Shown here: piece after piece, positions 55,607 to 58,600 of the stretch
Numbering within the stretch: position 1 is the first letter of the stretch
Layout of the letters: each line of letters begins with the position of its first letter
Origin: Shigella phage sb1
Sequence record: PQ666539
Length of the DNA stretch: 64,000 nt
Direction: 5' to 3' (one strand)
Notes under the pieces: model-generated
Databases searched by the model: none
Seen by the model: the letters and a program-made list of their open reading frames with translations, nothing else
Told to the model about the DNA's origin: nothing
Made by a program: the position numbers and the translations under genes

Positions 55607-58600
55607 CTGGCCGAGATTAAAAGAAAGTTCAGAGCAGAAGATGGTCTGGACGCAGGTGGCGATAAAATAATCAACGTAGCTTTAGCTGATCGTACCGTAG
55701 GAACTGACGGTGTTAACGTTGATTACTTAATTCAAGAAAACACAGTTCAACAATACGATCCAACTCGTGGATATTTAAAAGATTTTGTAATCATTTATAA
55801 TAATCGTTTTTGGGCTGCTATAAATGATATTCCAAAACCAGCAGGAGCTTTTAATAGCGTACGTTGGAGAGCATTACGTACTGATGATAACTGGATTACC
55901 GTCTCATCTGTGTCATATCAATTAAAATCTGGTGAAGCTATTTCGGTTAACACTGCAGCTGGTAATGATATTACATTTACTTTGCCATCTACCCCAATTG
56001 ATGGTGATACTATCGTTCTCCAAGACATTGGAGTAAAACCTGGAGTTAACCAAGTTTTAATTACAGCTCCAGTGCAAAGCATTGTTAATTTTAGAGGTCA
56101 GCAAGTACGTTCAGTTTTAATGACTCATCCAAAGTCACAGATGATATTCATTTTTAATAATCGTTTGTGGCAAATGTATGTTGCTGATTATAGCAGAGAA
56201 GCTGCAATTGTTACTCCATCGACTGCATATCAAGCACAATCTAATGATTTTATCGTGCGTAGATTTACTTCCGCAGCTACAATTAATATTAAACTTCCGA
56301 GATTTGCTAATCATGGAGATATTATTAATTTTGTTGATTTAGATAAATTAAATCCGCTTTATCATACAATTGTCACGACATATGATGAAACAACTTCAGT
56401 ACAAGAAGTTGTAACTCATTCTATTGAAGGTCGTACATCGATTGATGGTTTCTTGATGTATGATGATAGTGAAAAATTATGGAGATTGTTTGACGGGGAT
56501 AGTAAAGCACGTTTACGCATTATAACGACTAATTCAAACATTCGTCCAAATGAAGAAGTTATGGTATTTGGTGCGAATAATGGAACAACTCAAACAATTG
56601 AGATTCAGCTTCCAACTAATATTTCTGTTGGTGATACTGTTAAAATTTCCATGAATTACATGAGAAAAGGACAAACAGTTAAAATCAAAGCTGCCGGGGA
56701 AGATAAAATTGCTTCTTAAGTTCAATTGTTGCAATTCCCAAAGCGCTCAGAATATCCGCCTGAAGCTGAATGGGTGACTGTCCAATAATTAGTTTTTAAC
56801 GGTGAAACTAATTATGTTCCAGTTTTACAGCTTGCTTATATAGAAGATTCTGACGGAAAATACTGGGTTGTACAGCAAAACGTTCCAACTGTTGAAAGAG
56901 TCGATTATTTAAATAATTATAATAGAGCAAGATTAGGCGTGATTGCTTTAGCTACACAAGCTCAAGCTAACGTCGATTTAGAAAATTCTCCACAAAAAGA
57001 ATTAGCAATTACTCCAGAAACATTAGCTAACCGTACTGCTACAGAAACTCGTAGAGGTATCGCAAGAATAGCAACTACTGCTCAAGTAAACCAGAACACT
57101 ACATTCTCTTTTGCTGATGACCTTATCGTCACTCCTAAAAAGCTGAATGAAAGAACTGCTACAGAAACTCGCAGAGGTGTTGCTGAAATTGCTACGCAGC
57201 AGGAAACTAATACAGGTACTGATGATACTACAATCATCACTCCTAAAAAGCTTCAAGCTCGACAAGGTTCTGAAACATTATCGGTTATTGTAACTTTTGT
57301 ATCTACCGCAGGAGCTACTCCAGCCTCTAGTCGTGAATTAAATGGTACAAATGTTTATAATAAAAATACTAATAATTTAGTTGTTTCGCCTAAAGCATTG
57401 GATCAGTATAAAGCTACTCCAACGCAACAAGGTGCAGTAATTTTAGCAGTTGAAAGTGAAGTAATTGCTGGACAAAGTCAAGAAGGATGGGCAAATGCGG
57501 TTGTAACGCCAGAAACGTTACATAAAAAGACATCAACTGATGCAAGAATTGGTTTAATTGAAATTGCTACGCAAAGCGAAGTTAATACAGGAACTGATTA
57601 TACTCGTGCAGTCACTCCTAAAACTTTAAATGACCGTAGAGCAACTTAAAGTTTAAGTGGTATAGCTGAAATTGCTACACAAGTTGAATTCGACGCATGC
57701 GTCGAAGATACTCGTATCTCTACACCATTAAAAATTAAAACTAGATTTAATAGTACTGATCGTACTTCTGTTGTTGCTCTATCTGGATTAGTTGAATCAG
57801 GAACTCTCTGGGACCATTATACCCTTAATATTCTTGAAGCAAATGAGACACAACGTGGTACACTTCGTGTAGCTACACAAGTTGAAGCTGCTGCAGGAAC
57901 ATTATATAATGTTTTAATAACTCCTAAAAAGCTTTTAGGTACTAAATCTACCGAATCACAAGAAGGAGGTATTAAAGTTGCAACTCAATCTGAAACCGTG
58001 ACTGGAATGTCAGCAAATACTGCTGTATCTCCAAAAAATTTAAAATGGATTGTGCAGAGTGAACCTACTTGGGCAGCAACTCCATCCATAAGAGGATTTG
58101 TTAAAACTTCATCCGGTTCAATTACATTCGTCGGTAATGATACTGCTGGTTCTACACAGGACTTAGAACTATACGAGAAAAATAGTTATGCAGTATCACC
58201 ATATGAATTAAACCGTGTATTAGCAAATTATTTGCCATTAAAAGCAAAAGCTGCTGACGCAAATTTATTAGATGGTCTAGATTCATCTCAGTTCATTCGT
58301 AGGGATATTGCCCAGACAGTTAATGGTTCACTAACCTTAACCAACCAAACGAACCTGAGTGCCCCTCTTGTATCATCTAGTACTGCTACGTTTGGTGGAT
58401 CAGTTTCAGCAAATAGTACACTAACTATTTCTAATACTGGAACGGCAACTCAATTAATTTTTGAGAAAGGACCTCAATCTGGAACAAACCCAACGCAGAC
58501 AATGACTGTAAAAGTGTGGGGAAATCAATTTAGCGGGGAGTCAGATACAACACGTTCTACTGTATTTGAAGTTAGTGATGAAACTTCTAGTCATTTTTAT

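Follow-up and report, generated by a model that had tools for sequence, protein, structure and literature searches.

Nonsense mutants in gene 34 of bacteriophage T4 are classical laboratory tools. T-even phages also carry tRNA genes, and suppressor derivatives of T4 are known. C>A/G>T changes are the signature of oxidative guanine damage in sample handling, and their occurrence is sample-specific (PMC3616734; PMC6417284). The locus described here is gene 34, encoding the proximal subunit of the long tail fibre, in Shigella phage sb1 (sequence record PQ666539), and the DNA analysed was a stretch of 64,000 nucleotides of that record (the window). In this window gene 34 is interrupted in frame by a TAA codon at 56717-56719. 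The TAA is very probably an error of technical origin in the sequence as assembled or deposited and not a property of the phage; the actual phage almost certainly has TCA (Ser371) at this position and an intact gene 34.

The open reading frame (ORF) of gene 34 aligned without gaps to gene 34 of T4, to that of Escherichia phage Ec_YwIITB1 and to several hundred Tequatrovirus records, and was 91.2% identical in amino-acid sequence to T4 gp34 (1289 aa) over the full length. The gene order rnh-34-35-36-37 was colinear with Ec_YwIITB1, Shigella phage pSs-1 and T4, on one strand. An earlier note on this DNA, made from the letters alone, had reported that the TAA interrupts gene 34 in frame as the first of four such codons, and had given serine as the T4 residue at this position. 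Each of these statements held: the TAA was found on the + strand within an ORF of 1289 codons, in-frame TAAs were located at 56717, 56786, 57647 and 59156, and the alignment to T4 gp34, which the note had named as the check, showed TCA at the corresponding codon 371. The flanking peptide (...AAGEDKIAS, the stop, VQLLQFPKRSEYPPEAEW...) also matched the note's rendering. Serine at codon 371 was found in T4 and 12 other T4-like sequences, encoded by TCA in 12 of the 13 (T4, Ec_YwIITB1, Shigella phages sb2, sb4 and pSs-1, Escherichia phage EPIMAM01 and six IMG/VR contigs) and by TCG in one contig. The features of gene 34 are listed below, the codon changes having been read from the alignment to relatives.

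55607..59476, + strand: gene 34, long tail fibre proximal subunit, 1289 codons, with a lost start and four in-frame TAAs
55607..55609, + strand: start codon, ATG>CTG; ATG in all five relatives including T4
56717..56719, + strand: codon 371, TCA (Ser) > TAA, C>A
56786..56788, + strand: codon 394, GAA (Glu) > TAA, G>T
57647..57649, + strand: codon 681, GAA (Glu) > TAA, G>T
59156..59158, + strand: codon 1184, GAA/GAG (Glu) > TAA, G>T
59474..59476, + strand: genuine terminator TAA, at the same position in relatives

With a CTG start and four in-frame TAAs, gene 34 of the window does not form an uninterrupted frame opening with ATG. Its reading frame nevertheless remains conserved downstream of every stop. 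The stops are accordingly point lesions in a conserved and otherwise intact gene, as opposed to stops that occur by chance where nothing is encoded. Every one of the four stops lies one C>A or G>T step from the codon carried by all relatives. As written, gene 34 is a pseudogene; we interpret this state as an error.

The same class of change was found throughout the window, which belongs to Tequatrovirus and is ~96% identical to Shigella phages sb2 and pSs-1 and to Escherichia phages Ec_YwIITB1 and EPIMAM01. A substitution was scored as private to the window where these four relatives, projected on the window, agreed with one another and the window differed. C:G>A:T transversions accounted for 272 of the 829 private substitutions (142 C>A and 130 G>T). 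When each relative was made the focal genome in the same test, transitions predominated in all four cases and the C:G>A:T counts were 24 (pSs-1), 39 (Ec_YwIITB1), 46 (sb2) and 63 (EPIMAM01). The excess in the window was thus confined to C>A/G>T, as is expected of oxidative damage (272 vs 24-63 in the controls). It amounts to a layer of ~230 C:G>A:T changes on both strands, or ~1.2% of all G:C pairs, and the window had the lowest G+C content among the aligned genomes (35.80% vs 35.99-36.20%). Gene 34 alone held 66 private substitutions, 24 of them C:G>A:T; at ~12% nonsense, 24 such changes predict ~3 stops, and 4 were seen.

No clear motif was found in the trinucleotide context of the C:G>A:T changes, and G>T and C>A changes did not fall into blocks on the scale of reads or molecules (strand-run test, z=-1.1). 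The changes were mildly clustered within 20 bp (p=0.004) and their density over 2-kb bins was uneven (chi-square p=0.001), with only 1-2 events each in bins 4000-6000, 16000-18000 and 62000-64000 and 13-15 in other 2-kb bins. This patchiness possibly follows coverage. No frameshifting indels accompanied the layer; the few length differences between the window and its relatives were intergenic, multiples of three or compensated.

No trace of selection was seen in the C:G>A:T changes. Those private to the window and lying in coding DNA comprised 201 missense, 30 stop and 25 synonymous changes, against an unselected expectation for the same codons of 208.4, 30.9 and 16.7, respectively (p=0.11), so that they were not filtered by selection, again as expected of oxidative damage. 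The private C>T transitions, by comparison, comprised 54 missense, 1 stop and 116 synonymous changes, where 132.5, 11.1 and 27.4 were expected (p=4e-75), and the private T>C transitions comprised 27 missense and 199 synonymous changes. Purified transitions alongside unselected C:G>A:T changes resolve the divergence of the window into two layers, one of normal divergence and one never touched by selection.

Across the window, 33 premature stops (25 TAA, 5 TGA and 3 TAG) were found in 23 of the 78 gene models, 31 of them separated from the relatives' codon by one G>T or C>A change, and the start codons of gene 34, gene 15 and one small ORF were lost. The residues replaced were Glu, Ser, Gly, Tyr, Leu and Arg. 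TAA predominates among the premature stops because, in a genome this rich in A+T, the codons that one such change can turn into a stop are most often GAA and TCA. The interrupted genes include those for both terminase subunits, gp18, gp22, gp23, gp27, gp29, gp48 and gp51, together with uvsY, Alt, Alc, RNA ligase 1, NrdA, gp32 and genes 34, 35 and 36. A genome with these lesions is unable to form plaques. The lesions outside gene 34 were as follows.

575..577, + strand: gene 15 start codon, ATG>ATT (G>T)
1858..1860, + strand: small terminase (gp16), GAA>TAA
2975..2977, + strand: large terminase (gp17), GGA>TGA
3461..3463, + strand: large terminase (gp17), GAA>TAA
4125..4127, + strand: tail sheath (gp18) codon 128, GAA>TAA; also in sb2
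10042..10044, + strand: scaffold protein (gp22), TCA>TAA
10312..10314, + strand: scaffold protein (gp22), GAA>TAA
11617..11619, + strand: major capsid protein (gp23) codon 274, TTA>TAA
19075..19077, + strand: uvsW.1, GAA>TAA
20141..20143, - strand: uvsY, GAA>TAA
21609..21611, + strand: gp51, GAA>TAA
22634..22636, + strand: gp27, GGA>TGA
23075..23077, + strand: gp27, GAA>TAA
23897..23899, + strand: gp29, GGA>TGA
25684..25686, + strand: gp48, TAC>TAA
27586..27588, - strand: small hypothetical gene, TCA>TAA
29449..29451, - strand: Alt ADP-ribosyltransferase, GAG>TAG
39687..39689, - strand: hypothetical gene, GAA>TAA; its start at 39750-39752 is also lost, ATG>ATT
41011..41013, - strand: AGA>TGA, ambiguous, as it may lie just upstream of a small gene's annotated start (pSs-1 annotation)
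43017..43019, - strand: spanin (pseT.3-like), GAA>TAA; also in sb4
43196..43198, - strand: alc, GAG>TAG
43382..43384, - strand: alc, GAG>TAG
43665..43667, - strand: RNA ligase 1, TAC>TAA
44238..44240, - strand: RNA ligase 1, GAA>TAA
44391..44393, - strand: RNA ligase 1, GGA>TGA
48397..48402, - strand: NrdA, two adjacent stops, both GAA>TAA; the one at 48397 also in sb4
53210..53212, - strand: gp32 single-stranded-DNA-binding protein, GAA>TAA
60109..60111, + strand: gene 35, GAA>TAA
61230..61232, + strand: gene 36, TCA>TAA

The record is one of four phage genomes from a study in Kolkata (Bioinformation 2024, PMC11993411), deposited under the following accession numbers.

PQ666539: phage ADG1, the record containing the window
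PQ666540: phage AKR2, named sb2 in GenBank
PQ666541: phage CDR3, named sb3 in GenBank
PQ666542: phage TMC4, named sb4 in GenBank

In that study DNA was prepared with cetyltrimethylammonium bromide (CTAB), a Twist enzymatic-fragmentation library was made by the polymerase chain reaction (PCR) and sequenced on a NovaSeq 6000, and the reads were assembled with SKESA and annotated with Prokka; the account gives no figure for coverage (PMC11993411). ADG1 has the lowest reported G+C content of the four (35.16% vs 35.35-35.52%), and coding sequence (CDS) counts of 285 for ADG1, which is inflated, 291 for TMC4 and 254-255 for the other two are given (PMC11993411). Similar lesions were found in two of the sibling assemblies. 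Both sb2 and sb4 are T4-like, ~96% identical to the window and carry premature stops from transversions, and the CDS annotation of both is visibly fragmented. When the siblings were projected on the window gene models, 50 premature stops appeared in the corresponding 64 kb of sb4 and 4 in that of sb2, among the latter stops in gp18 and gp34; pSs-1 and EPIMAM01, which come from other laboratories, had none beyond natural gene-end differences. In sb4 the excess of transversions, 158 C>A, 122 T>A and 65 T>G, extends to T:A>A:T and T>G changes, in which it differs from the window. The annotation of sb4 shows gene 34 whole; in sb2 the gene is split at positions other than those in the window.

A layer that consists of substitutions only, is blind to selection and is tied to the assemblies of one study fits a technical origin. 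The C:G>A:T changes would have arisen no later than library construction or base calling. Their most likely source would be damaged guanines (8-oxoguanine, 8-oxoG, or abasic sites) with A copied opposite each, and low coverage or low library complexity would have let the changes into the consensus. That the coverage was thin or the library bottlenecked is an assumption, plausible for DNA containing glucosylated hydroxymethylcytosine (glucosyl-hmC) that was fragmented enzymatically. Two other technical sources were considered: Nanopore or homopolymer error was rejected, as the window is without an indel layer, and NovaSeq two-colour chemistry has T>G as its documented artefact (PMC13218037).

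Several observations weigh against a technical origin through guanine oxidation. Because SKESA normally discards minority k-mers, the variants must have been in the majority among the reads. Damage of the 8-oxoG type at the level of the consensus needs an extra assumption, namely thin coverage or a bottlenecked library. The published 8-oxoG artefacts are of low allele fraction and favour CCG (PMC3616734), whereas the changes in the window are fixed in the consensus, reach ~1.2% of G:C pairs and follow no clear sequence context; in particular, no preference for CCG>CAG was found (8 of 707 CCG sites, or 1.1%, vs 1.18% overall). The documented NovaSeq-specific artefact is T>G and not G>T (PMC13218037). 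Some changes in the window are also common to the sibling assemblies, unlike the published 8-oxoG cases: 13 C:G>A:T changes were exclusive to the window and sb4, where 2.1 were expected (p=2.5e-7), and 12 of these 13 were non-synonymous, including two nonsense changes (43017 and 48397). Independent random damage does not predict this sharing.

The changes shared with the siblings were examined by position. Three premature stops of the window recur, that at 4125 in sb2 and those at 43017 and 48397 in sb4. Several of the changes shared with sb4, some of which sb2 has as well, lay in tight triplets at 43015/43019/43042, 8954/8962/8981 and 23036/23047/23058; overall, the shared error-like changes were located at 43015-43042, 8954-8981, 23036-23058, 48330-48399 and 4125. 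The error densities of the window and sb4 showed no correlation in bins of 0.5-2 kb, and shared bad regions were therefore rejected as the cause of the shared errors. The sharing could come from site-specific systematic error or from cross-talk between libraries that were run together, and some of the shared changes may be natural lineage variants.

In an alternative reading the changes are real: the sequenced molecules were a hypermutated, non-viable T4-like genome carried in a mixed lysate or environmental sample and the process was G:C>T:A hypermutation through massive guanine oxidation, depurination or an unknown mutagenic process. Some nonsense changes are shared by the window with sb4 and sb2 beyond chance, which could mean shared molecules, and plaque purification is not mentioned in the published account (PMC11993411). 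The changes are unselected, of one substitution class and strand-symmetric, and a single round of real mutagenesis would look alike. A phage could not, however, be propagated with 33 nonsense mutations spread over 23 genes, of which many are essential, and no known process turns ~1% of G:C pairs into T:A in a replicating phage. The natural-divergence layer of the window is normally purified, and the different error spectrum of sb4, to which T>A and T>G changes are added, speaks for a problem of data quality rather than for the action of one mutagen. We regard this reading as very unlikely. Its more specific form, a true G:C>T:A hypermutation of ~1% of G:C pairs with some mutated tracts common to co-isolated sibling phages, is rated slightly lower again, as highly improbable; massive oxidation or depurination of glucosyl-hmC DNA, or an unrecognised host process, may be proposed as examples of a cause.

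Corruption after assembly, by a fault in data processing or by deliberate mutation in silico and not in wet-lab sequencing, would account for the near-uniform rate across trinucleotide contexts and for the lack of strand-run structure (z=-1.1). It would also suit the results of exact searches, in which the TAA-bearing 33- to 38-mer had 0 exact matches in the viral, genome and metagenome contigs of three public collections and a look-up of the window's portal protein gave no recorded copy. A random in-silico mutator would not keep to one substitution class, and the uneven density (chi-square p=0.001) and the clustering within 20 bp (p=0.004) also speak against it. The deposited GenBank records of the siblings show the same kind of damage and even some identical changes, and such corruption is accordingly judged very unlikely.

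Recoding or suppression, in which TAA is read as an amino acid through an alternative code, a suppressor tRNA or programmed readthrough and the full gene 34 is translated, is given almost no credence. All four stops in gene 34 are TAA, as this reading would have it, and the tRNA genes and suppressor derivatives of T-even phages mentioned above lend it a precedent. TAA is not avoided as a terminator, though, ending 54 of the 78 genes of the window, gene 34 included (TGA 20, TAG 4), and all three stop codons occur among the premature stops, in place of six amino acids, so that no single decoding fits. ARAGORN found no tRNA gene in the 64-kb window, and hence no suppressor tRNA within it; the four Kolkata phages are reported to have ten tRNAs, all with ordinary anticodons (PMC11993411). 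The stops are, moreover, accompanied by 201 unselected missense changes. As far as the sequence can tell, recoding is excluded by the use of TAA as terminator in 54 of 78 genes, the tRNA-free window and the mixture of stops and residues. The long use of nonsense mutants in T4 genetics brings up a conditional-lethal ochre mutation in gene 34, of the kind known from the classical fibreless T4 strains grown on suppressor hosts, but such a strain would have one or a few defined nonsense mutations, and this equally negligible candidate was rejected on the 33 stops in 23 genes (four stops and a lost start in gene 34, plus 29 stops in 22 other genes) and on a backbone that is not T4 but an environmental T4-like lineage, ~91% identical to T4 in the aligned part 50077-61514.

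Three further features of the window and its relatives were recorded. Between gene 32 and gene 59 (53237-53340) only ~100 bp of intergenic DNA is present in the window, pSs-1, sb2 and EPIMAM01; T4 differs in having the homing endonuclease gene segG between these genes. Two tandem full-length Alt-like ADP-ribosyltransferase paralogues of 685 codons each, with ~68% DNA identity, lie at 27925-32043 (- strand); the pair is also present in pSs-1 and other relatives, and one copy in the window has the premature TAG at 29449. In Ec_YwIITB1 (PQ356294), the closest relative in gene 34, the major capsid and hoc genes are split in the annotation (12348-13909 and 16896-18325), and a cluster of small indels relative to the window lies inside gene 23 (window 11289-11388). 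The Ec_YwIITB1 record probably contains local assembly errors.

The value of the technical-error explanation lies in quality control and not in biology, as a warning on the public records of the window and its siblings. Gene 34 and the 22 other affected genes of the window are not to be taken as pseudogenes, recoded genes or nonsense mutants, and in-frame stops, lost starts and odd amino-acid replacements in the window have the same trivial cause. In sb4, and to a lesser degree in sb2, the damage inflates CDS counts and puts truncated proteins into databases.

Compared with known systems, the classical T4 gene 34 nonsense mutants resemble the window in that a premature stop would likewise truncate the proximal half-fibre; they are single, selected mutants kept on suppressor hosts, whereas the window has 33 stops and no signal of selection. 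Phage stop-codon reassignment shares with the window many in-frame stops within conserved genes; the window departs from it in having all three stops in frame, TAA as the main terminator and heterogeneous residues at the interrupted positions. The 8-oxoG artefact (Costello et al. 2013, PMC3616734; Ma et al. 2019, PMC6417284) is like the layer in the window in being of one substitution class on both strands, sample-specific, made up of substitutions only and blind to coding.

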